From IMG/VR virus record IMGVR_UViG_3300037692_000261, positions 1 to 26,202 of that record: a stretch of 26,202 nt of DNA; one strand, 5' to 3'. The position numbers and the translations under genes are program-made. Source of the stretch: a virus. Taxonomy: Duplodnaviria; Caudoviricetes. Positions 1 to 10,131 of the stretch are shown piece by piece (the stretch's first letter is position 1; each line of letters opens with the position of its first letter). Below the pieces are notes generated by a model. It was not told where the DNA came from, made no database searches, and saw nothing but the letters and a program-made list of their open reading frames with translations.

Positions 1-25
1 AGTACGGTATAAAATAGATTTAGTG

Positions 26-460
26 ATGTTTAGATTTGGAAAAACGAGTAAAGAAAGATTGAGCACATGTCATAGTGATATGCAGTTAATCATGAACGAA
101 GCAATTAAAATAACCAATGTTGATTTTGGGATTGCTGAGGGTCATAGAAGCATTGAAAAGCAACAACAATATTTTAAAGAAGATAAAAGTAAGATAGATG
201 GTATCTCTAAGAAAGGGAAACACAACTATATCCCATCCTTAGCCGTAGATATTTATCCTTATTTTGAAAACTGTGCTAAATGGGATAATGAGCATTTAAG
301 CTACTTATCTGGAATTATTCACGCTGTTTCAGAAATGCTCTTCACTTCTGGAAAAATTACACACAAGATTAGATGGGGCGGTAATTGGGATATGGATGGA
401 GTTATTTTAATCGACCAATCATTCGATGATAGACCACACTTTGAATTAGTACTGCCGTAG
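26..460 (+). CDS. Endolysin, peptidase M15 family (L-Ala-D-Glu peptidase-like); cassette 1
   Basis: Motifs EGHRS, KHN..PSLAVDI, IRWGGNW and DRPHFEL typical of phage M15 endolysins; ATG at 26 preferred over GTG at 23. Confidence 0.9.
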   Translation: MFRFGKTSKERLSTCHSDMQLIMNEAIKITNVDFGIAEGHRSIEKQQQYFKEDKSKIDGISKKGKHNYIPSLAVDIYPYFENCAKWDNEHLSYLSGIIHAVSEMLFTSGKITHKIRWGGNWDMDGVILIDQSFDDRPHFELVLP

Positions 461-470
461 TATTGGCGGT

Positions 471-595
471 AACGTTACGGCGGTAAGAAACGTGCCGGAA
501 TTACGAGTACAAAACTTTCAAAATACAGATGAATTATGAACGAAGAACAAAAGATTGAGAACCCACAAAGCCCGGCATGTTTTTTACCGCATGTT
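471..595. repeat. attC-like recombination site 1 (125 bp)
   Basis: AAC(471-473), arm GCGGTAAGAAACGTGCCGG (480-498), loop, arm CCGGCATGTTTTTTACCGC (572-590), GTT(593-595); 17/19 Watson-Crick pairs plus 2 G.T pairs on the + strand. Confidence 0.8.
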
Positions 596-1321
596 GGCAG
601 CAGTACGGTGTTTAATGCTCATTATTCGGCTGTTATTGGTTTGTTTCCTGATAAATATTTTGATTGGGCGGTATGTGATATTCCTTATGGTATTGGAGTT
701 GCTAAAATGGCTTATTTAAAAGAAACGAGAACAACCGTAAAGCAAAAAAACGGAACTCGAATAAACCCAAATAGGAATAAACATAAACATACTTTTAAGG
801 ATTGGGATAATGCCACTCCACCTCAAGCATATTTTGAAGAACTGATGCGAATAAGCAAAAATCAAATAATATTTGGGGCTGATTATACCGACTGGACAGG
901 ATTAGGTAAAGGACGTATTAAATGGAATAAGGGATTTTCGGAAGGTGTGAGTTTTAACCAATTTGAATACGCTTACTGCAGCTACATAGATTATGAGATT
1001 GAAATATCTCTTTTATGGGCTGGAATGATGCAGGCTAAAAGCCTTAGTGAACCAATGGTGCAACAAGGGAACAAAAAACTAAATGAAAAAAGGATACACC
1101 CTTGCCATAAACCTGTGATGCTATATGATGCCATTTTTAAAAAATTTGGCATATACAAAATGAAAGTAATTGATACCCATTTAGGCTCGGGAAGCATACG
1201 AATTACTGCAGATAAATTTGAATGTGAATTTGTCGGCTCTGAAATTGATTCGGAATATTTTCAGGACGAAGAAAAAAGATGGTTCAATTATAAACGAAAC
1301 TTGAAACTGGCACTTTGGTAG
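536..1321 (+). CDS. DNA methyltransferase, N6-A/N4-C, beta-class order; cassette 2
   Basis: Motif IV variant DIPY near the N-terminus, HPCHKP, motif I variant DTHLGSGS, GSEID near the C-terminus. Confidence 0.88.
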   Translation: MNEEQKIENPQSPACFLPHVGSSTVFNAHYSAVIGLFPDKYFDWAVCDIPYGIGVAKMAYLKETRTTVKQKNGTRINPNRNKHKHTFKDWDNATPPQAYFEELMRISKNQIIFGADYTDWTGLGKGRIKWNKGFSEGVSFNQFEYAYCSYIDYEIEISLLWAGMMQAKSLSEPMVQQGNKKLNEKRIHPCHKPVMLYDAIFKKFGIYKMKVIDTHLGSGSIRITADKFECEFVGSEIDSEYFQDEEKRWFNYKRNLKLALW

Positions 1322-1331
1322 TATTGCTGCC

Positions 1332-1454
1332 AACGGACAAATGTTTGTGCAGTTGGGGATTATAACCCGATGCACTGTCAAAATAGTAGAAACTTAATAA
1401 ATTATAAAACAGATGAATACACCTCAGAACCCCCAATTGCATAAACATAGTGTT
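1332..1454. repeat. attC-like recombination site 2 (123 bp)
   Basis: AAC(1332-1334), arm ATGTTTGTGCAGTTGGGG (1341-1358), arm CCCCAATTGCATAAACAT (1431-1448), GTT(1452-1454); 16/18 Watson-Crick pairs plus 2 G.T pairs on the + strand. Confidence 0.8.
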
Positions 1455-1883
1455 ATCGGTTCGGCTTTTATTCCGTCCGATTTCAGAATTGGAAACTATG
1501 TTCAATCAAAAGAATGGGGAGGCTACGGACAAATTGAAGGCATTGAAGTTTTGCCCGACAGGATTGATTTTAAAGTCAAAGGATATGTTCACTCCATCAT
1601 TGAAGGTAAATACTTTGATTTAGAAAAAATCGAATTAACACCTGAGTTAATCCAAAAAATAGGATTTAAGCGATTTGAAGACAAAGGAGTTGTTGGCTTA
1701 GATTACTCAGAGCCAGAAGAAATGACAATTTGGTACGAAAAGGGCAAATTTACAATTGTGCAATGGGGCGAAAATACACCATTCCTTTTCTCTAATCACA
1801 ATTTAAGAGTTGAACTTAAATACGTTCACGAACTGCAAAATCTATTTTACACGATTGAACGTTCGGAGCTGTCTTTAAGCTAA
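1413..1883 (+). CDS. Phage hypothetical protein (RIGNYV...IELT.E...GF...YVHELQNL.Y type); cassette 3
   Basis: 156-aa ORF with a motif pattern I recall from Bacteroidota phage proteins; function unknown. Confidence 0.75.
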   Translation: MNTPQNPQLHKHSVIGSAFIPSDFRIGNYVQSKEWGGYGQIEGIEVLPDRIDFKVKGYVHSIIEGKYFDLEKIELTPELIQKIGFKRFEDKGVVGLDYSEPEEMTIWYEKGKFTIVQWGENTPFLFSNHNLRVELKYVHELQNLFYTIERSELSLS

Positions 1884-1888
1884 CCGAT

Positions 1889-2011
1889 AACGGATAGTAT
1901 AAGTTTGCGTTGCGGATTTCGGAGTGATTTCCTGTCGAGCCTCACTGCCATTTATGCGAGCTAAACAGCTCTTTGTCAGCGCGAAAACCGCAATGAAATT
2001 TATACATTGTT
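1889..2011. repeat. attC-like recombination site 3 (123 bp)
   Basis: AAC(1889-1891), arm GTATAAGTTTGCGTTGCGGATTTCG (1897-1921), arm CGAAAACCGCAATGAAATTTATAC (1982-2005), GTT(2009-2011); 2 G.T pairs, one extrahelical G, one mismatch. Confidence 0.8.
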
Positions 2012-2158
2012 AACGCCCGGTTTTAATTATTTGTCTTCATCTGTTTGTCTTTTTACTTTAAACAGTTTGAATATTTAGTCTTTCTATTAGCGTAATTATC
2101 GTTTTATTTTCTGTAAGATGTCAGTTTTAATCTGAGATTCGAAGAGAAGTCATGAACG

Positions 2159-2620
2159 TTATGAAATATCGGTTGGCACATTTTTATCTTTTCTGTGATT
2201 ATCAAATACTTCAATTCCAGTCTTTAAAAAACCAATAAGTCCAACTCCTAATACTATAGCACCAAATGATACTTCTTTAATTTGGTCGTTTTCGGTAATA
2301 AAATATCCAAACACGCCGAACGCTAATGTTGAAAACGATAGCAATATAATCAAAGCAATAATCCAAATACCTTTTTTAGGATTTTCCCAAATCTTTTTTT
2401 CAAACTTAAGTGACGTTTTTGTTGTATCCTGAAGTGAAGAAAAACTGATTCCAAGTCCTAAGAAAATCATCATATTATTTATGCTGTCTAAAGTCAAATT
2501 CATTTTATCCGCACTATCAAAAAAACCATTCAAATAGGGTTCTAAAGCAAAGTATATCACAAATATCATTAGAGGATATTGTAAATAACTTAGATAGTGA
2601 AATAATAATTTGATTTTCAT
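2159..2620 (-). CDS. Hypothetical integral membrane protein (~4 TM); cassette 4
   Basis: 153-aa ORF with four hydrophobic stretches; opposite strand to its neighbours; bounded by complementary ends 2009-2022 and 2692-2705. Confidence 0.8.
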   Translation of the reverse strand: MKIKLLFHYLSYLQYPLMIFVIYFALEPYLNGFFDSADKMNLTLDSINNMMIFLGLGISFSSLQDTTKTSLKFEKKIWENPKKGIWIIALIILLSFSTLAFGVFGYFITENDQIKEVSFGAIVLGVGLIGFLKTGIEVFDNHRKDKNVPTDIS

Positions 2621-2691
2621 TTTTCTGTCAATTTTAAAGTCTGAACAATAAGTAAATTTAGTCTTTTCTCTTGTATTTAGGCGCAGCTTTT

Positions 2692-2737
2692 AACTGGGCG
2701 TTAACGGTAAATATCATTAGTTTAAAAAATTAAACTA
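2692..2737. other. Terminal half-site of the cassette array (attI-like or secondary insertion site)
   Basis: AACTGGGCGTTAAC (2692-2705) is complementary to the start of cassette 4, but no ~120 bp palindrome follows; only a short hairpin TAGTTTAA-aaaa-TTAAACTA (2718-2737). Confidence 0.5.
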
Positions 2738-2982
2738 TGCAGCAATTATCTGATTATGAAGAAAAAAGCCTAAATAAATTAGGAGGGGCAATTACAGACG
2801 GGCAGTGGAGCAATGAGGGCTTGGTTCAATTAATTAAACTGTCAGGGGGTTTTCTTAATTTACAAACAATTGCAGACTATGCTCAAAACAACAAGATAAG
2901 CTACCAGGCAGCTAAAAAAAATGCAGCGTATAGAAAAAATATTGAAATTTTCAACTGTAAATTTGTAATTGATAATGAATAG
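2737..2982 (+). CDS. Small hypothetical protein, possible HTH-like DNA-binding
   Basis: 81 aa; LQTIADYAQNNKISYQAAKK resembles a helix-turn-helix pattern. Confidence 0.65.
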   Translation: MQQLSDYEEKSLNKLGGAITDGQWSNEGLVQLIKLSGGFLNLQTIADYAQNNKISYQAAKKNAAYRKNIEIFNCKFVIDNE

Positions 2983-2986
2983 TAAT

Positions 2987-3340
2987 ATGAAAACAGCAAA
3001 AGAAGCAATTAATAACTTTTTTGAAGCATGGAAAAAGGCCGATTTTGAAACTATGTACAACAATTGTACCTACACCTGGCGCGATGGGCACCCGGTTAGC
3101 GAGTTGATAACCATTTTTAAAAACAGGCAGCTGTTAAGCTATTCTGTTTTGAAAAGCACTGCCGGTAATGCTACCATACATGCGGTTGATTTTAAGGTTA
3201 AGGTTAAGGTTAAGGATGAGGTTAATATTAAAAGCATTATTTTACGTAAGGTGCGAACGGTACCCGAACTTAAAGCCTACCGTAACGACCCTAAAGGCTT
3301 TTTCGGAGTAAATCCGATAAGTGTACTTTATAATTTATAA
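2987..3340 (+). CDS. Hypothetical protein, possibly NTF2-like fold
   Basis: N-terminal TAKEAINNFFEAWKKADFETMY is like NTF2-family openings, followed by beta-strand-like segments; start 2987 or 2975. Confidence 0.6.
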   Translation: MKTAKEAINNFFEAWKKADFETMYNNCTYTWRDGHPVSELITIFKNRQLLSYSVLKSTAGNATIHAVDFKVKVKVKDEVNIKSIILRKVRTVPELKAYRNDPKGFFGVNPISVLYNL

Positions 3341-3366
3341 TTGATATCTAACGATTAAATTTTTAA

Positions 3367-3615
3367 ATGATGAAAAAGTTTTTAATTGCAAATGCCTTAT
3401 ATGGTCTAAGCAAGCAAGTGCCAGCGGATGAACTTGCACAATTAAAAAAAGATCTTTCAGGTGCAACCGAAGCACCCCAGTTACAAATCATTCATAATGC
3501 CTACATGCGCGAAAAAATGGGCAAAATTGAGAAACATGTAAAAACAATCAGGCTCATAGCTGTTGTCATGTTTGTTTTTACCATTTTGGGTGCAATTATT
3601 TACGCACTTGCGTAA
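3367..3615 (+). CDS. Small hypothetical protein with C-terminal TM helix
   Basis: 82-aa ORF ending LIAVVMFVFTILGAIIYALA. Confidence 0.65.
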   Translation: MMKKFLIANALYGLSKQVPADELAQLKKDLSGATEAPQLQIIHNAYMREKMGKIEKHVKTIRLIAVVMFVFTILGAIIYALA

Positions 3616-3654
3616 AAAAATCCCCGTAAAAATTGGCTGGTCTTTTAGTGTTTT

Positions 3655-3693
3655 AACCCTGTCAGGTTTCAAAAACCTAACAGGGTTTTTTTT
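3655..3693 (+). terminator. Intrinsic terminator / REP-like hairpin between convergent gene blocks
   Basis: AACCCTGTCAGGTTT-caa-AAACCTAACAGGGTT (14/15 stem) running into a T tract. Confidence 0.75.
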
Positions 3694-4129
3694 ATGAAGG
3701 AATGTCATGCAGCGTGGTGGTGTAGGTAATGCGGTAGACCGGCTTGTTATTGCGCCGCTTTTCGCGAATAGCCGATTTTCGACTTAGTGGCGAAAGTGTC
3801 CAGGTGTTTGTCCAGCCCTGTAGCTGTTTATGCACATCCTCGATAGTGTCGAACACGCTCATTGCCGTTGTCCGGTTTTCGGCTGATGTTGCTGCGTTTG
3901 TCGCCCCACGATGGTCAAATGAAATGCGTAGTACTATTTCAACATCGGCAATTTGTTCTTGTTTGGCAATATCGTCGCAACTTGGATAGATAAGGTCTAT
4001 AAGGCAGCACGGGTAAGTTACTGCAGGCCGTTCGGCTTCTAGTTGGCCGTTATCCCAATCAATCCATCGTAATGCCGGTACGTTTGTTTCGAGCCTGTCG
4101 CATAGGCTTGTGAATGCTTGTTTGTTCAT
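3692..4129 (-). CDS. Putative tail completion/terminator protein (Mu gp37-like)
   Basis: LRWIDWDNGQLE..RPAVTYPCCLID and VHKQLQGW pattern; position after the morphogenesis gene. Confidence 0.7.
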   Translation of the reverse strand: MNKQAFTSLCDRLETNVPALRWIDWDNGQLEAERPAVTYPCCLIDLIYPSCDDIAKQEQIADVEIVLRISFDHRGATNAATSAENRTTAMSVFDTIEDVHKQLQGWTNTWTLSPLSRKSAIREKRRNNKPVYRITYTTTLHDIPS

Positions 4130-4132
4130 AAT

Positions 4133-4160
4133 AAACCCCCTAACCCCCTAAAGGGGGGAT
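4133..4160. repeat. Short C/G hairpin with tandem AACCCCCT repeat (REP-like)
   Basis: AAACCCCCTAACCCCCTAAAGGGGGGAT in the intergenic gap. Confidence 0.4.
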
Positions 4161-4179
4161 TTTGGCCGGGGACGCCTTT

Positions 4180-4641
4180 TTAATGCCAGAAGGCTTTTGC
4201 AAAGCCTTCGATGCGGGTTTTTATTTTACTTGTCAATTCTTTAGCATCTCCCAAAAAAGGGCGGGCATCGATGTCGACATTACGGGTATGTGCCTTAACT
4301 TCTTTGCCTTTGCGCGTATGAGTTGGTATGTTAATTACCCCCTTAAACCCTTCGTTGTGTACTTTTGCGTAGTTTACCTTATCGTTTCCGGCTTGTATAA
4401 TTACTTCTTTAGGCGTAACTACTGCCGGTTCAATGCTGTTCATTAAACCGCTGCTATCAATTAGCAACGAGCCTGTACTTTTAGCTGTTTTAGCAGGTCC
4501 CCATGCTTTTTTATCGAATGCTTTTTTATTAAAAGCTTCTTTACCATACTCAACCGCCGTTTCGGCAATAATGTCGGGCACTGCCTCTTGTACTTCGTGT
4601 CGGAAGTTTTCGAAATATGTTGCTAAATCGGTAATTGTCAT
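4180..4641 (-). CDS. Phage virion morphogenesis protein (Mu G / tail_S family)
   Basis: Motifs LIDSSGLMNSI, YAKVHNEG, ARPFLG. Confidence 0.88.
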   Translation of the reverse strand: MTITDLATYFENFRHEVQEAVPDIIAETAVEYGKEAFNKKAFDKKAWGPAKTAKSTGSLLIDSSGLMNSIEPAVVTPKEVIIQAGNDKVNYAKVHNEGFKGVINIPTHTRKGKEVKAHTRNVDIDARPFLGDAKELTSKIKTRIEGFAKAFWH

Positions 4642-4676
4642 AATTCAAAAGTTATTAAAATGTCATTAATAAGTTG

Positions 4677-4684
4677 TAACTTTG
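4677..4684 (+). promoter_or_regulatory. Bacteroidota -7 promoter box TAACTTTG, antisense to the head operon
   Basis: Exact TAnnTTTG match just upstream of a structured element; -33 box not evident. Confidence 0.55.
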
Positions 4685-4689
4685 GTTTA

Positions 4690-4794
4690 TTGTTTAAGCT
4701 GTTGAGTTGGTGCCATTACCCCGGAGCGGAGGGACACCGGCGTTATTCCAGCTAAAAACAAAAGCTCTAACCTGGCATTTTGCCGGGTTTTTTT
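4690..4794 (+). ncRNA. Putative structured small RNA
   Basis: -7 box upstream; closing stem TTGTTTAAGCTG/CAGCTAAAAACAA; GC-rich inner stems (TGCC/GGCG, CCC/GGG); terminator downstream. Confidence 0.55.
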
Positions 4795-7340
4795 ATGAGT
4801 AAGCCTTGTCGGTAGCGGTCCATGGTTTCGCGGCCTTCCTGTACCGAAAACCATGTTTTTACTTCGTACAAATTTCCACCCTTAATTTTTGCAACTACCA
4901 CCATTGTTTCGTCGGTGTTATACTTAATGAAAACGTACTGGTCGAAAGTATCGGAGCCCGCCGCATTAATCCAAACCTCATCGGGGACTTTTAGCGTTTC
5001 CGATGCCGATTTTATGTAAGGTACCCGTTCTTGCAACTTGGTTGAATGGCCTTTTAAATAGCGTTTCAATGAGAATTCAATTTTTCGGTCGTTATAGTCG
5101 GTGAAGAAGGTTTTGCCATCCTCTTTTTTCAAGCCGTTTACATAATCTTCAATTGTTCCCTGATACTTCGCCACTGCTGTGGCTGCTTTTTTTCGGTTTG
5201 CTTCAAAACTGCCAAGCTTATAGGTATTGTAGTTCACATTCTTTAACAAGCGTTTGGCCATGGTCGGAAATTTTTTGATGTACAATTGGTTGGCATTAAA
5301 TAACTGTGGTGTTAAAGCCCTGTTTACTCCAAATCCCTGTGCTTTTGCAGCTTTAAATTCTGGGCCTTTAATATAGGCATCAGCTTTTGCACGCATGGCT
5401 TTAAGGTCAACTGAACTTACTTCGTGGGCCATAACGCCAACTACATAGCAGCGGCATTTCCAGCCGTTTGGGGGCCATATTTGCGCCCAGCGCGGATCGT
5501 TTGCAGCAAGAATAAGCCCGTTCAACGCAGCATGTTCCGGGCGCGTACGTTCGTCGATCACGGCCACATACTTCCAGTATGGAAAAAGATGAGTTTTGCT
5601 TTTAAGGCGGTTATAATTGGCAGTACTTTCGCTTATTAGCGTTGCGCTTTGCCATTCGGTTTTTTGCCAGGTTTTATTAAACACATCGACCTTTTCGACG
5701 GCCGATTTGTAAAAATCGTCAAAGCTTTTACTTTTTCGGTATAAACCGTTAAGGGTTTGCAATTCGGCCACTGTTTTAGCTGCCGAAAAGTGAAAAATAT
5801 TCAACTCCTGAGCCGTCCTAAAAGCATCGTTTTGGTGTTTGTAGGTAAAACCGAGATCGGCCATCTCGACAAGCTCGATGACCGCACCGCTGTCGGAAAG
5901 GCGCGTTGGTTTAGCGTCGAGCGCGGTGATAAGGTTAAGGCTTATGAAAGCAAACAAATCGGGATAAAAAGTTTCACCTTCAATCGCAGCGTTAATGATG
6001 CGATCACTTAAACTTTCGTCAGAAAGTTTTACTCCCCATTCAGGGAGCTGGGGTGGTGTGTGGAATTTGGATGTTGCCCCGCTCCCCGGGGCCGATGCGA
6101 AAAAATCCAACAGCTGTTTAAAAAAGTTTCGATCAGATTGTTGAATGTTGCCATCGGGCTGTGGTGTTGGATCGCCTGCTACCCGACTTATTTGTTCGAC
6201 ACCTGGCATATTTCGGCGGGCAATTGGCTCACCGTCCTGGGCTTCGGGTATTCCAAATTTTTCGAAGATGAAATAGGCCGGAATATCAACTATGTCGCTT
6301 AAAGATACAATATCGTCCACGGTAAGGCTGTCGGGAGCTTCCGGGAATATGAATGTACCACCACCTACCGGAAAACCACGGCTTTCCAGAATAGGCTTAA
6401 CAATGTAATTAAGGATGCGGCCAACATACTTCATGTCAGCTTTTGTCTTATCCTGCTGTACTTCCATGTGGACCTCGCTCTGGCTGCGACTACTACCGTC
6501 GAGCGTGGTCATGGTTTGTCCGAGGATGGTAATAAGCATCTCTTCATTACAGGCTTTGCGAAAATCGTTATAGCTCGTGTTTGATGAACCATTTGCACCA
6601 TCGCTGCTTTCCGTTACATCGGCCTCTTTTGGTATAACTATCCAGGGTGCCGATCCTGCTTTTTCGGCAGCATCTTCTAAAAGTTGTTTTGTGGCCGGAT
6701 CGGTAGCACTGTACTTGAAAACGCGCTTAGGCATGCCAAACACTTCGAGCCATTCGGCCCAATCGCCAAATCCTCCACGCTTCCATATGGCATAAGGTGC
6801 AGCTTTAAGCAATAAACCAAAATCACGAGGTTTTCCTACAATCAATAAATGATCGTCAATACTGTAATCGATACCCGTTTCGTCAGTATCGTTAATCAAG
6901 ATCATCTTGTTTTCGGGACGAATGTATTTGGTTGGGATTGGTTCAAAATTGAAACTGTTTTCGATTTCGACATTAAAGTCGAACTCACCACCTGCGCGAC
7001 CTTTGAAAATTTTCCACATAATTTCCCCCAGCAGGCTTTCGAAGCCGGGTGAATCGATCATGCTGATTATTTCTTCGACTTCCTCGCCGTTTTCGTCGTG
7101 AAAGGTTAATTCAGACAGCTTTACCGCATCGATGCGCTTGTCGATAGCATCGCTTAACACGCCATCGATCAACAAATCGTCGAAGAGGTCGTACAATGCT
7201 TTGACTTTTCCTTTATCGGCACTTTGCAGAGCTGTGCGCCATGCCCCCACATCGCTTGTGGTACGTTGTGGTGTTTTTATGATGATCTGGTTTACCACCA
7301 AATTTTCATTGCCTGTACTTTTTTTAACTTTTACTGCCAT
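4767..7340 (-). CDS. Portal protein (DUF935/Mu gp29-like) fused to MuF (gp30-like) and a C-terminal PBECR2-like nuclease domain
   Basis: Portal motifs GLLLKAAP..IWKR, W.E.FGMP, ILGQTMTT..GSSRSQSEVH; MuF motif YVAVIDERTRPEH...PPNGWKCRC; C-terminal TLKVPDEVW...YVFIKY...KTWF. Confidence 0.85.
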   Translation of the reverse strand: MAVKVKKSTGNENLVVNQIIIKTPQRTTSDVGAWRTALQSADKGKVKALYDLFDDLLIDGVLSDAIDKRIDAVKLSELTFHDENGEEVEEIISMIDSPGFESLLGEIMWKIFKGRAGGEFDFNVEIENSFNFEPIPTKYIRPENKMILINDTDETGIDYSIDDHLLIVGKPRDFGLLLKAAPYAIWKRGGFGDWAEWLEVFGMPKRVFKYSATDPATKQLLEDAAEKAGSAPWIVIPKEADVTESSDGANGSSNTSYNDFRKACNEEMLITILGQTMTTLDGSSRSQSEVHMEVQQDKTKADMKYVGRILNYIVKPILESRGFPVGGGTFIFPEAPDSLTVDDIVSLSDIVDIPAYFIFEKFGIPEAQDGEPIARRNMPGVEQISRVAGDPTPQPDGNIQQSDRNFFKQLLDFFASAPGSGATSKFHTPPQLPEWGVKLSDESLSDRIINAAIEGETFYPDLFAFISLNLITALDAKPTRLSDSGAVIELVEMADLGFTYKHQNDAFRTAQELNIFHFSAAKTVAELQTLNGLYRKSKSFDDFYKSAVEKVDVFNKTWQKTEWQSATLISESTANYNRLKSKTHLFPYWKYVAVIDERTRPEHAALNGLILAANDPRWAQIWPPNGWKCRCYVVGVMAHEVSSVDLKAMRAKADAYIKGPEFKAAKAQGFGVNRALTPQLFNANQLYIKKFPTMAKRLLKNVNYNTYKLGSFEANRKKAATAVAKYQGTIEDYVNGLKKEDGKTFFTDYNDRKIEFSLKRYLKGHSTKLQERVPYIKSASETLKVPDEVWINAAGSDTFDQYVFIKYNTDETMVVVAKIKGGNLYEVKTWFSVQEGRETMDRYRQGLLIKKPGKMPG
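4771..4794 (+). terminator. Intrinsic terminator overlapping the last codons of the portal-MuF gene on the opposite strand
   Basis: CCTGGCA-ttt-TGCCGGG followed by T7. Confidence 0.7.
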
Positions 7341-7369
7341 AATTTAAGTCATTAATAAATAGTTATTAA

Positions 7370-7789
7370 TTAGAAATGCTGCGATTTTTTTGCATTGCTG
7401 CCGTAGCGTATCTGAGCAGTATATTCAACGCCGTCGGTGGTTTCTAGGGTTGGTAAGTCGGGGACAATATTCCCTTTCATTACATCTTTTAACCAGGTAA
7501 CGGCACGGTCGTACACCTGTTTGCGATATTCGTAATTGACACCTGCAGCCGATAGCTTCACGAGGTGAAAAGCGGCAAGGTCCTTACACATTGTTAACAG
7601 CAATTGATTACGGCTACTGCTGGTTTGTGCAAAAATGGTATCCTTGTCGTAATTGCTCAGGTAGCCTTTAGCTTCCGATACTGCCGTATCGATCGCCGAG
7701 GTAACAAGTGTATCGTCGCTTCGGGTAATTACGTCTACATTTTCCTCGTAGAGGTAATTTTTCATTTCTGTAATGCTTATGAATGACAT
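7370..7789 (-). CDS. Mu gp36-like (DUF1320) head-tail adaptor
   Basis: AVSEAKGYL..YD, DLAAFHL, YDRAVTWLKDV.KG...PDLP. Confidence 0.85.
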   Translation of the reverse strand: MSFISITEMKNYLYEENVDVITRSDDTLVTSAIDTAVSEAKGYLSNYDKDTIFAQTSSSRNQLLLTMCKDLAAFHLVKLSAAGVNYEYRKQVYDRAVTWLKDVMKGNIVPDLPTLETTDGVEYTAQIRYGSNAKKSQHF

Positions 7790-8094
7790 GGCTCTGTGAA
7801 TTTAGGTGTTTCAGTATTAGTGTCGAAATAGCAAAAAGGCTGCATGTTTGTTGCATTTACGTGCCAATCCCAATTACCGAAATGCTTTTGGCGTTGAATG
7901 TCTTGTCGGGTCATTGCCCGGTATTTACGGCCAACGAAAAAAACCCGGTAGCGTTTTCGTTTTTTCGGGTTGATGTGCGATGCTTCGTGCAGCTTTTTAG
8001 CTTTTTTAATAGCACGTTTCAACTTCCACGGGCTACCGTGCCAGCGGGTACCAAGGTTAAACCAAATTGCGCGTATGTACATTAAACCTTTCAT
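7777..8094 (-). CDS. Basic hypothetical phage protein
   Basis: 105-aa ORF tightly packed between the terminase and gp36-like genes. Confidence 0.7.
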   Translation of the reverse strand: MKGLMYIRAIWFNLGTRWHGSPWKLKRAIKKAKKLHEASHINPKKRKRYRVFFVGRKYRAMTRQDIQRQKHFGNWDWHVNATNMQPFCYFDTNTETPKFTEPCHS

Positions 8095-8095
8095 T

Positions 8096-9640
8096 TTAAA
8101 ATCGTTTTTTAGAGTTATGTTTTACCCGTCCAATTTTGATAGTGTCGGGCTTAATTGATGCAATTTTTTCGTTAATAATCCATACCCCACCTTCGATACA
8201 ATCGGGACCATCGGCAGGGGCTTTCAACTGCATTGTAAACAGCTTAAACTGCTCTTCGAGACGTAACATGTGCGGATTGTTTTTTTCATCTTCATTCAGG
8301 ATTAACTGACCATTACGGTTCAGCGGTTCGAGATTACCTTCGATACGTGTTGGCTTTTCGGGCTTACGGCGATCGTCGGGCGAAATGCTTATGAACCCGT
8401 CTGTTTTGCCTTTTTCAAATAACGCGGGTTTAGTTACCTGCTCATAGAAGGGGTCCTGGAGGCTATTGTTTTCGATGTAGTTGTACACCTGTGTTTTATC
8501 GCCTACATACTTTTTTTGATCGTAAAACCAGTTGATGAAAGTGGCCTGTGGTGCCTGTTCGAGAAAACCATGGTATACGTAAAACTTGCCATCTTTATAT
8601 CCAATTAAGAACTGCGATTTGAACGAAACGCCTTTCTTTTGCTTATCCTTATTGCTTGGTGAAGGGTCGGAATAGTTCACCACGAAAGGGAGCGACGAAA
8701 GTGGAGGGCATTTGCCCCATACCATTTCTTTGAATATGTCGCCTTCGCTTAACGGGTTGTTCATATACTCACCTTCGTAAGCCATGGTACTTATTTTTGC
8801 CTTGATGCGGGCAATGTGTTCGGGTTTATTTTTTTCGGGCCATGAGCTTTCGCCGGTTTTGGTTTCGAGGTTAACCGTATCGGTTTTATCGGCTTTTTCC
8901 GATGCTCGTACTACGCAGCAATCCTTTGCTATCATATTGCCTAACCAAATGTATTGCGTATCCTTCGAAACCGAACGGGTTGGAAAAACGGCTTTTTCGA
9001 ACCATTCCCAACGCTTGCTAATTACGTCGGGGTTACGTACATCCTCATCGGTATCGATATCAGAAATAATAATCTTATCGGGCCTTACCTCTTCATCGCG
9101 GCTACCACGGGGCGACTGCCCGGCACCAACGGCCAAAAAACTTGCGCCCTGTGTTGTGGTAAAATCACCATCAGCCCAACTGCCTGCCATTTGTTGCGTG
9201 CCGTAATCGGCAATAATACGGGCGTTACTTTCGAGATTTATTTTGTACGGTTTTAGTAAATCGCAAGCTTTATCGTAGCTGTTTGATATGAACAGTACAT
9301 TACGCTTTTGTTTCGTTAAAACCTGCTTTATGGTCACCATCATTTCAACCACATCCTTTGCAAGTTCACGGCTCCATAGGCGGACTTCGTACCACTCGGG
9401 GTTTGACAGTTCGCGGTTCATTGCCCTGATGTGAAAACCAGGTGACGGCGCATAGCAATATTTTGGAAAGTAATAGGCACACCATTGGCGGTTATCGGCT
9501 TCGAGGCGGGAAATGCGCTTTTTTCGTTCACTTTCGGTTTCGTTTGTCGCAGCTTCAACATCGGCAATAAAGCTTTCGTAGTAGCTGTCCCAGTCGCGCC
9601 CGGCCTGCCTGTCAATTGGTTTTAGAGTAGTACCAGCCAT
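8096..9640 (-). CDS. Terminase large subunit
   Basis: WSRELAK Walker-A-like, GAGQSPRG, RPD...D.D, EYMNNP, YSDPS, C-terminal DGPDCIEG. Confidence 0.88.
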   Translation of the reverse strand: MAGTTLKPIDRQAGRDWDSYYESFIADVEAATNETESERKKRISRLEADNRQWCAYYFPKYCYAPSPGFHIRAMNRELSNPEWYEVRLWSRELAKDVVEMMVTIKQVLTKQKRNVLFISNSYDKACDLLKPYKINLESNARIIADYGTQQMAGSWADGDFTTTQGASFLAVGAGQSPRGSRDEEVRPDKIIISDIDTDEDVRNPDVISKRWEWFEKAVFPTRSVSKDTQYIWLGNMIAKDCCVVRASEKADKTDTVNLETKTGESSWPEKNKPEHIARIKAKISTMAYEGEYMNNPLSEGDIFKEMVWGKCPPLSSLPFVVNYSDPSPSNKDKQKKGVSFKSQFLIGYKDGKFYVYHGFLEQAPQATFINWFYDQKKYVGDKTQVYNYIENNSLQDPFYEQVTKPALFEKGKTDGFISISPDDRRKPEKPTRIEGNLEPLNRNGQLILNEDEKNNPHMLRLEEQFKLFTMQLKAPADGPDCIEGGVWIINEKIASIKPDTIKIGRVKHNSKKRF

Positions 9641-9642
9641 CC

Positions 9643-10092
9643 TTACCGCTTTAGAAGGTCCTTAATAAAATCGTTGCAAATGTTCACAACGTGAAGGGTA
9701 TCGGGGTGGTTTTGCGAACGCATCCAGTCGCCCAGGCGTTTGGCAACTTCAACGATATCAGAAATACTAGCATCGGTTTCGAGGCGTTGTATTGAGGTGG
9801 TGAGCTTGCTTATAGTATCGGCCTCTTTGGGGTCGGCAAAGCGTTTACCGGCTTCGCGGTTCATAATGTGCGTGTTCAATTCATCAAGCTGCATATACAG
9901 GCGTTCGAGCTGGGCTGTTCGGGTGGCCAGCATAGAGCGGCGCAGGCTTTCCCAATTAAACTTTTTAAACCATTTATTCATGGTAATGGGTGTGACGCCT
10001 ACTATTTCGGCAGCTTCTTTTTGCGTGTGGCCCTGTTTACATATAAGGTCCTGCGCCCAGCGTTGCCTGTCGTTCATTTTTAAAGCTCCCAT
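9643..10092 (-). CDS. Putative terminase small subunit with N-terminal HTH
   Basis: TQKEAAEIVGVTPITMNKW HTH followed by W; immediately upstream of TerL; ATG at 10092 preferred. Confidence 0.8.
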   Translation of the reverse strand: MGALKMNDRQRWAQDLICKQGHTQKEAAEIVGVTPITMNKWFKKFNWESLRRSMLATRTAQLERLYMQLDELNTHIMNREAGKRFADPKEADTISKLTTSIQRLETDASISDIVEVAKRLGDWMRSQNHPDTLHVVNICNDFIKDLLKR

Positions 10093-10131
10093 AATGCTGA
10101 TTTTTAACACGAAACTAAGCCTTACGCATGC

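Follow-up and report, generated by a model that had tools for sequence, protein, structure and literature searches.

How does a transposable phage exchange single genes as whole units when no recombinase gene is in view? The question is raised by the left end of IMGVR_UViG_3300037692_000261, a 26,202-base virus contig (Duplodnaviria; Caudoviricetes) that we analysed over its full length (the window), in which single-gene units are separated by hairpin-forming sites running from an AAC to a GTT triplet. A first-pass annotation, made from the sequence alone, had read these units as an integron-like, shufflable cassette array in a Mu-like prophage, recombined by an IntI-like tyrosine recombinase encoded further left or by the host. 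That account ended at position 2705; the array head at 2702–2982, made up of a short candidate entry site and a gene for an 81-amino-acid (81-aa) protein, lies outside it. Here we propose, with a probability of roughly 0.7, that this part of the phage forms the entry end of a cassette array moved at AAC, as a folded + strand, by a XerA-like recombinase acting in trans and with the 81-aa protein as an accessory factor. The folding of a single strand as substrate, the circles, entry at 2702–2736, the supply of the enzyme in trans and the accessory role of the small protein are the steps of this proposal that we infer.

The window holds four units and three sites (Table 1), and the coordinates and match counts that the first-pass annotation had given for the sites all proved correct. 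The two ends of each complete cassette are complementary to each other (13/14, 10/10 and 13/14 letters in cassettes 2, 3 and 4), and in every case a unit's start best matches its own end, with 10, 8 and 10 of the 11 letters past GTT matching, as against 2–6 in the other nine pairings. Across 70 other phage loci, the seven nucleotides (nt) past the cores were complementary (at least 5/7) at 49 of 65 unit ends, compared with 18 of 111 single-site ends and 13% of random pairs. Unit 1 is cut short by the contig start; a related Mu-like phage, L173, carries the same endolysin unit (88% over 1–490) with a complete upstream hairpin site, which confirms unit 1 as a unit.

Table 1 Features of the window
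Feature	Position	Strand	Details
Unit 1, 5′ end lost at contig start	1–472	+	Endolysin gene 23–460, ending in the TAA of the core at 470–473; phrog_465, E 2e-36
Hairpin site 1 (AAC-arm-loop-arm-GTT)	471–595	+	125 bp; contains methyltransferase start codon at 536; folding, end matching, covariance model
Cassette 2	473–1333	+	Site 1 and adenine/N4-cytosine DNA methyltransferase gene 536–1321; PF01555 above cut-off; PADLOC MTase_II, E 1e-19
Hairpin site 2	1332–1454	+	123 bp; contains next gene's start codon at 1413; folding, covariance model; breakpoints 1332, 1335
Cassette 3	1334–1890	+	Site 2 and 156-aa gene 1413–1883, function unassigned; phrog_10066, E 5e-8
Hairpin site 3, host-chromosome type	1889–2011	+	123 bp; folding, covariance model; breakpoints 1888, 1889, 1893
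Cassette 4	1891–2704	− (gene; chromosomal orientation)	Site 3 and predicted 153-aa membrane protein gene 2159–2620
Array head, likely attI-like entry site	2702–2736	+	TAAC 2702–2705, 15-nt spacer, perfect palindrome 2719–2736 (7-nt arms, 4-nt centre) abutting ATG
Array-terminal protein gene, 81 aa (phrog_18952)	2737–2982	+	Two N-terminal helices, then a winged helix in the model; homodimer predicted
Mu-like neck, portal/MuF fusion, gp36 and terminase genes	3692–10110	−	Domain and phrog profile matches

Genome comparison shows units to be gained or lost as wholes at the AAC core. Between its endolysin unit and site 1, L173 has two additional complete units with matching ends, and the window corresponds to L173 minus both. 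Homology stops and resumes at a TAACG common to both phages at the join, and site 1 of the window is 100% identical in L173, beginning at 470, with a different left flank. Contigs from four sediment runs were then aligned to 380–2900 at 95% and 85% likeness. At 95%, seven of the ten loose contig ends are no more than 2 nt away from an AAC core (the breakpoints at sites 2 and 3 in Table 1, and 2702 twice) and the remaining three at 463, 1874 and 2784; two different cassette ends join the head at 2702 (runs X1 and X2), and one X1 contig covers exactly 470–1335, that is, cassette 2. At 85%, among the ends listed (24 of 44), another falls at 474 and three at 2014. The X1 contig that departs at 1874, off the core, matches for 30 letters and then continues into a short inverted repeat rich in GC.

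These comparisons bear out the shufflable array, and most of the breakpoints fall at the AAC cores; the first-pass annotation had named breakpoints unrelated to the cores among the outcomes that would speak against it. Flanking sequences place the exchange more closely. Near-identical hairpins (11 pairs, 2 of them duplicates) share 8.45/10 of the right flank and 5.36/10 of the left. The base after AAC is G in hairpins and mostly T in head sites, and left flanks switch at the first A, which, as judged from these alignments, locates the crossover inside the left-hand AAC. The cut at AA|C claimed earlier thus stands as far as the triplet is concerned, the exact position being presumptive and borrowed from attC. 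An alternative frame, with the hairpin downstream and the cut at the right-hand GTT, folds about equally well and is set aside in view of L173, the loose ends and the flank linkage.

The + strand had been named as the folded one, and with both strands folded as DNA it does better at all three sites: z-scores for sites 1, 2 and 3 are −2.85, −1.79 and −2.86 on the + strand and −0.89, −1.28 and −2.03 on the − strand, site 2 being weak (8/200 shuffles equally good). Folding improves by 5–10 kcal/mol when a hairpin is linked to the end of the unit it heads. An arm detector found two of the three sites in 1–4000 (mean 0.07 in 15 shuffles) and, at the same threshold, none in 4000–26202. When a covariance model was trained on 58 sites from other phages, leaving out those of the window, it recovered precisely the three claimed sites and nothing more in the window (89.9, 87.9 and 54.6 bits). 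Arms in the 58-site alignment are 93.3% paired, with a covariation of 0.643 against 0.158 when shuffled; because these sites were chosen for pairing by a detector that scored G·T and C·A alike, the strand bias is informative and the size of the covariation is inflated. G·T pairs are fixed on the + strand in 50/58 sites at one column and in 56/58 beside the core. Central spacers are unpaired and asymmetric, mostly 5–6 versus 1–3 nt, and the + strand is the preferred fold. Site lengths in the 70 phage loci peak at 121–125 nt, with lesser groups at about 68–71 and 83–88 nt; covariance-model matches in the chromosomal locus L023 are about 198 nt long.

Hairpins of this kind might instead be RNA elements (terminators, translation leaders or processing sites) or MITE-like repeats, the modules moving by homologous or illegitimate recombination. 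In units 1–3 the G·T-rich strand is indeed the mRNA strand, and 41 of 87 units have their start codon within the hairpin loop. In unit 4, however, the folded strand is opposite to the gene, as it is in all 8 of the 25 chromosomal relative loci that have model matches; the folded strand goes with the site and not with the transcript, which points to folded DNA, rather than RNA, as the acting form. Complementarity, moreover, lies in the unit ends and not in the site ends, breakpoints fall at a 3-nt core, and arrays terminate at tyrosine recombinases. Rfam gave no real match for window positions 1–4000 and, on six chromosomal loci, nothing beyond one group II intron and one Moco riboswitch; Flavo-1 and similar RNA motifs were considered as the identity of the sites and are unsupported, having no Rfam match. 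This makes the RNA or MITE explanation scarcely credible.

The cassette array, read as such, ends at the head. Relatives of the 81-aa gene number 32 in the protein collection and occur in 70 viral loci, and the geometry of AAC, 15–16 nt and a palindrome that abuts the ATG recurs in 52 of 71 loci including the window; the other 19, truncated or variant in some cases, do not show it. Of 121 covariance-model matches on the + strand, 119 are located upstream of the 81-aa gene, and the start of the last unit matches the end of the head AAC in 25 of 29 loci. On a palindrome-anchored profile the window head scores 20.3 bits, the best in the window (next, 8.7; training median, 30.5). We therefore regard 2702–2736, on its sequence features, as a likely attI-like entry site for new cassettes, and the recombinase-less head with its 81-aa gene is a new element of the present analysis. 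A pattern scan returned 25 loci: the profile detected the small gene in 9, another 2 hold it in truncated form, and the remainder seem to be chance matches. The protein gave no tblastn match among annotated phages, and its family is absent from the matches in the 5 and 401 bacterial genomes searched, a search that had no positive control. The small gene's C-terminal Asp-Asn codons were considered as a hidden TAAC end and dropped, AAC being used in only 29/68. Right before the head AAC, L059, L060 and L090 carry stretches of about 30 nt that start with GTTGTG and end, in CAAC, with their own complement; they resemble gene-less units, or the ends of units with the gene wholly in the hairpin loop.

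What would move the units? Domain and profile searches found no recombinase in the window, and PF00589 is present in 0/5 related Mu-like records, all fragments, one of which spans from the repressor and a transposase-like gene to the array. The enzyme is thus better placed elsewhere, as the first-pass annotation had allowed, than further left, its other suggestion. Chromosomes with relatives of the unit 4 gene carry such sites too: all five searched have 10–100 covariance-model matches each. The remark that integrons are no feature of Bacteroidota accordingly holds for IntI integrons, described as rare in Bacteroidetes in the available part of PMC9024848, and fails for the present system. In genomes G002 and G005 a large chromosomal array ends at a tyrosine recombinase; relatives occur in 32 of 121 genomes of the phylum. 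Among thirty chromosomal recombinase loci, 11 place a site downstream of a recombinase that has the same orientation, and in 3 a site lies upstream of a short (about 280-aa) recombinase reading away from the array. Of the 11 loci in which the phage-head profile could be tried, it locates the crossover behind the chromosomal recombinase in 7, with a 7/7 end match; in the short chromosomal class, 3 of 5 testable loci have the last unit ending 85–138 nt ahead of the ATG. L146, L148, L154, L157 and L159 have long imperfect inverted repeats between the stop of the chromosomal recombinase and the entry core, and a perfect hairpin element of about 94 nt stands just ahead of the short chromosomal recombinase head in L164 and L166 (at about 1264–1358).

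In phages the same slot can hold an enzyme. Among the short phage recombinases (best 80 of 156 matches examined), the loci gave 146 covariance-model matches, all on the + strand, and 139 detector sites upstream against 2 downstream (54/80 loci), and 35 of 47 have a last unit that matches the head AAC. A XerA-like recombinase of about 267 aa there sits in the head slot that elsewhere holds the 81-aa gene. The two never coincided in the loci compared (0/70 and 0/80): the 81-aa gene was found within 3 kb at 0/80 phage recombinase loci, and the small-gene loci (window and L027–L135) gave a single weak recombinase-profile match within 6 kb (E 0.008). At the sequence level this shows two alternative occupants of the head slot, the 81-aa gene or a recombinase; since the window holds the former where other phages hold the enzyme, the phage likely borrows its recombinase. 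No relatives of the long chromosomal recombinase were found in viral contigs.

What the 81-aa protein does was approached through structure prediction. The monomer model (pLDDT 93) has two helices followed by a strand-helix-helix-hairpin, and a homodimer was predicted with a score of 0.61 against 0.00 for the best control, the runs agreeing in at least 89% of contacts with pLDDT of at least 79; of 30 solved pairs 20 attained the mark applied, as did 1 of 23 single chains. Predicted contacts run mainly through the N-terminal helices. The C-terminal half aligns weakly to the excisionases RdfS (8dgl; Z 4.2, rmsd 5.2, 56 residues aligned) and Pukovnik Xis (4j2n; Z 4.0, rmsd 2.3, 42 aligned), HTH_17 models reach a TM of 0.51–0.52, below the tool's bar, and the protein has no match in Pfam or NCBIfam. 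The models thus predict a homodimer with a weakly excisionase-like winged helix, and a dimer with two winged helices would fit a palindromic site. Like the Xis- and MerR-like directionality factors (RdfS, Pukovnik Xis, Tn916 Xis 1y6u, HTH_17), this is a small basic protein encoded beside an attachment site, with a C-terminal half predicted to be a winged helix; it differs in the weakness of the matches (Z 2.9–4.2), in an additional N-terminal helix pair predicted to dimerise and in having no adjacent integrase gene. We know of no dedicated directionality factor in integrons.

The same cassette system could instead carry an 81-aa gene that is a mere self-repressor or passenger in place of a lost recombinase, in which case the array would change only upon the chance arrival of a foreign enzyme and the small protein would be no help. 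A palindrome abutting the ATG is where an operator would lie, the fold matches also take in the plain regulators BldC, MerR and Par, and recombinase-bearing heads function without the palindrome. Against this, 51 of 52 loci keep the palindrome 15 or 16 nt from the AAC, a constancy that ties it to the crossover point, and the gene is retained behind arrays in unrelated phages in which the genes downstream of it vary and are unrelated. An accessory role (directionality or access) and plain self-repression are about even, and the self-repressor account as a whole seems unlikely to us, though far less so than an RNA one.

Several observations weigh against the proposal of an AAC-centred array with a borrowed enzyme. 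A relative of site 3, about 90% identical, diverges in three runs at 2014, on the GTT side, which speaks against strict linkage, and several of the loose ends consist of 30–49 matching letters and may belong to other phages sharing the unit. Joints of excised circles and go-back joints, the former suggested as a check by the first-pass annotation, were not seen in the sediment contigs, in which assembly drops rare forms. The window head scores −1.5 on an AAC-anchored small-gene profile, −12.5 on the recombinase-phage profile and 10.1 as a hairpin start, and may on these scores be a weak or aged site. The palindrome is present at 0/30 chromosomal recombinase loci and 1/75 phage recombinase heads, so that its role is linked to the small gene by co-occurrence only. 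No fold match of the 81-aa protein reaches Z 5, the top two being eukaryotic PCI winged helices, and Foldseek returned none for the model at E 0.001. Finally, both the Bacteroidota host and the action of a recombinase on sites 1–3 are presumptive.

Put together, the proposed mechanism would run as follows. A cassette would have the form C-hairpin-GTT-gene-YAA and, once excised as a putative circle, would have its stem closed by its own two ends. The array would be recombined as a folded + strand, probably by a XerA-like tyrosine recombinase that is likely taken from the Bacteroidota host or from another phage, and new cassettes would enter at the unfolded site 2702–2736. A dimer of the 81-aa protein would bind the palindrome before its own ATG, repressing itself, and would act as an excisionase-like accessory factor that sets direction or access for the borrowed enzyme. 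Expression of the cargo (methyltransferase, endolysin and host-type membrane gene) would come from the Mu early operon, and inside their hairpins cassettes 2 and 3 supply their own start codons. We also entertain, tentatively and with less than even confidence, a broader version in which attI-like site, palindromic operator and dimeric excisionase-like protein form a portable dock that commandeers and steers the recombinase of the host or of a helper phage and is spread by Bacteroidota phages, transposable ones included. Were this so, the dock would be the non-autonomous twin of the recombinase-bearing head, and the phage would draw cassettes straight from the host's chromosomal array, as with cassette 4.

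Cassette 4 speaks to such traffic. Its gene lies on the − strand, a point not made in the first-pass annotation; 25 bacterial loci hold relatives of it, and the record titles of 22 name Bacteroidota. At the DNA level site 3 finds relatives in 53 of the 151 genomes that make up the family of G002 (the best at 81% over 125 nt), and it is nearer to chromosomal than to phage sites, which sites 1 and 2 are not. From these relationships, cassette 4 likely originated in a host chromosomal array. Relatives of the endolysin lie outside units in 10 of 11 cases. An 11-nt element at the end of the endolysin gene (446–457) occurs once in the window and twice in L173 (at about 3430–3450) and in contigs of runs X1 and X4. 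In one of the additional L173 units (3460–4629) a short hairpin of 65 bp is followed by a Bro-N antirepressor-like gene and small genes, and a C5 methyltransferase gene lies ahead of the L173 array.

The phage is Mu-like, as had been claimed, with Portal_Mu, Phage_Mu_F and Gp36 above cut-off and a weak Mu-like_Pro match; it cannot be called a prophage from this record, a virus contig with no host DNA in view. Genes for a DDE transposase and a MuB-like ATPase would fall beyond the window; AAA_22, DUF3164 and a 690-aa gene, which gives a weak rve match in G558, are present in the relatives G556 and G558. Modules with the 81-aa gene close the early operon in further Mu-like phages (L063, L066, L071 and L104). 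Among 13 terminase relatives the small gene and a site stand at the same place in L104 only, and L099 has neither; a scan with the neck gene found no relatives. Blastn of window positions 400–3000 against annotated phages gave one short match only, to a methyltransferase. A single 857-aa open reading frame at 4767–7340 fuses portal, MuF and a PBECR2 nuclease domain, as in L099 and L107, and a 123-aa gene holds a short GGTTAA tandem repeat at 3184–3219, where contig depth is high in three runs.

If correct, the proposal describes a gene-capture system parallel to integrons and common to Bacteroidota chromosomes and phages, with natural before-and-after pairs that fix the crossover and with candidates now available for the entry site and for the enzyme family. 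A recombinase-less head would account for how enzyme-less phages restock anti-restriction methyltransferases, and hints at cassette traffic between host and phage. A single-strand site read through G·T pairs and not through flipped-out bases, with a possible accessory factor, would broaden what is known of folded-DNA recombination and might serve as a tool. Our literature search, outside which most subscription journals lay, found no paper joining all features and only partial sightings, a cassette array in a Polaribacter phage and the rAID-1 clusters; new here are the natural deletion pair, the population breakpoints and the recombinase-less head.

In integrons, genes are oriented away from attI and each has its own attC behind it, and the heptamer RYYYAAC is the complement of GTTRRRY. 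IntI is said, after Messier and Roy in 2001, to have an additional domain. In the loci studied here, AAC and GTT triplets bound an imperfect inverted repeat, as in attC, and G stands right after AAC in 98% of 99 hairpin sites, as in most attC R′ boxes according to the available part of PMC2727003. With integrons (PMC2727003 and PMC9024848, both in part; PMC8618304; PMC4889954) the array further shares single-gene units, AAC/GTT cores, unit ends able to pair in the circle, a single folded strand, an unpaired spacer and one unfolded site beside a tyrosine recombinase slot, whose entry function is inferred here. One could therefore take it for a classical CALIN (attC sites clustered without an integron integrase), with true attC sites and a host IntI, all the more as Qi et al. 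(2023; PMC9892861, accessible sections) described a CALIN in Polaribacter phage P12002L and called its sites, one of them of the present kind, ordinary attC. The attC heptamer GTTRRRY (PMC9892861, same sections), however, occurs in 11/114 sites, as does RYYYAAC, and neither in the three of the window; attC sites also carry two or three extrahelical bases on the R″–L″ arm (PMC2727003, in part), whereas 60 of 89 full-length sites here fold without a bulged base, with one such base on the GTT arm in another 12 and on the AAC arm in another 15 (in the window, site 3 belongs to the last group and sites 1 and 2 have no bulge), and the fixed G·T pairs take their place. Genes mostly face the entry site, 87 of 94 phage units pointing towards the array head (in the window only unit 4 points away), with start codons in the hairpin, and a small predicted DNA-binding gene stands in the window where the enzyme would. 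The array-linked recombinases lack the IntI insertion, with 24 residues where IntI4 has 67 (about 43 fewer), and score 145–208 bits against the TIGR02249 cut-off of 265, which tells against the IntI-like enzyme first suggested. A CALIN in the strict sense is thus very improbable.

P12002L itself fits the present model in part. Within the accessible sections of PMC9892861, its CALIN is likewise phage-borne and without integrase, and attC1, of the form TAAC-arm-arm-GTTAG, heads a methyltransferase unit with matching ends; attC1 is also the sole site of six without a verified IntI1 junction (section 3.4), which further disfavours the CALIN account. The attC2 site is found on the other strand, at the opposite end of this unit, a place that the present model reads as an entry-type site, and the array head gene and cognate recombinase are not described in those sections. 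In L110 (P12002L) at 29230–30058, the IntI1-recombined attC2 ends at the GTT that the model reads as an entry-type crossover. Our covariance model did not match the short attC1. The rAID-1 clusters of Bacteroidales (Ross et al., 10.1101/471110, available part) consist of a XerD-like recombinase and then co-directional low-GC genes, with intergenic repeats called 'reminiscent of integrons'; they are defined by a 5′ recombinase more than 44% identical to BF9343_RS08045 and two or more co-directional genes of at most 41% GC. Units 1–3 of the window are co-directional, with a GC content of 0.30–0.38, and lack such a recombinase. In layout, rAID-1 resembles the long chromosomal class, and G002, G005 and 11 of the 30 recombinase loci; it is chromosomal, carries immunity genes and has its recombinase, and in the part available a hairpin model, crossover and phage form are not given. 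Judged by its sites and gene order, the present system is one that functions like an integron, yet stands apart from that class in its heptamers, bulges, orientation and enzyme.

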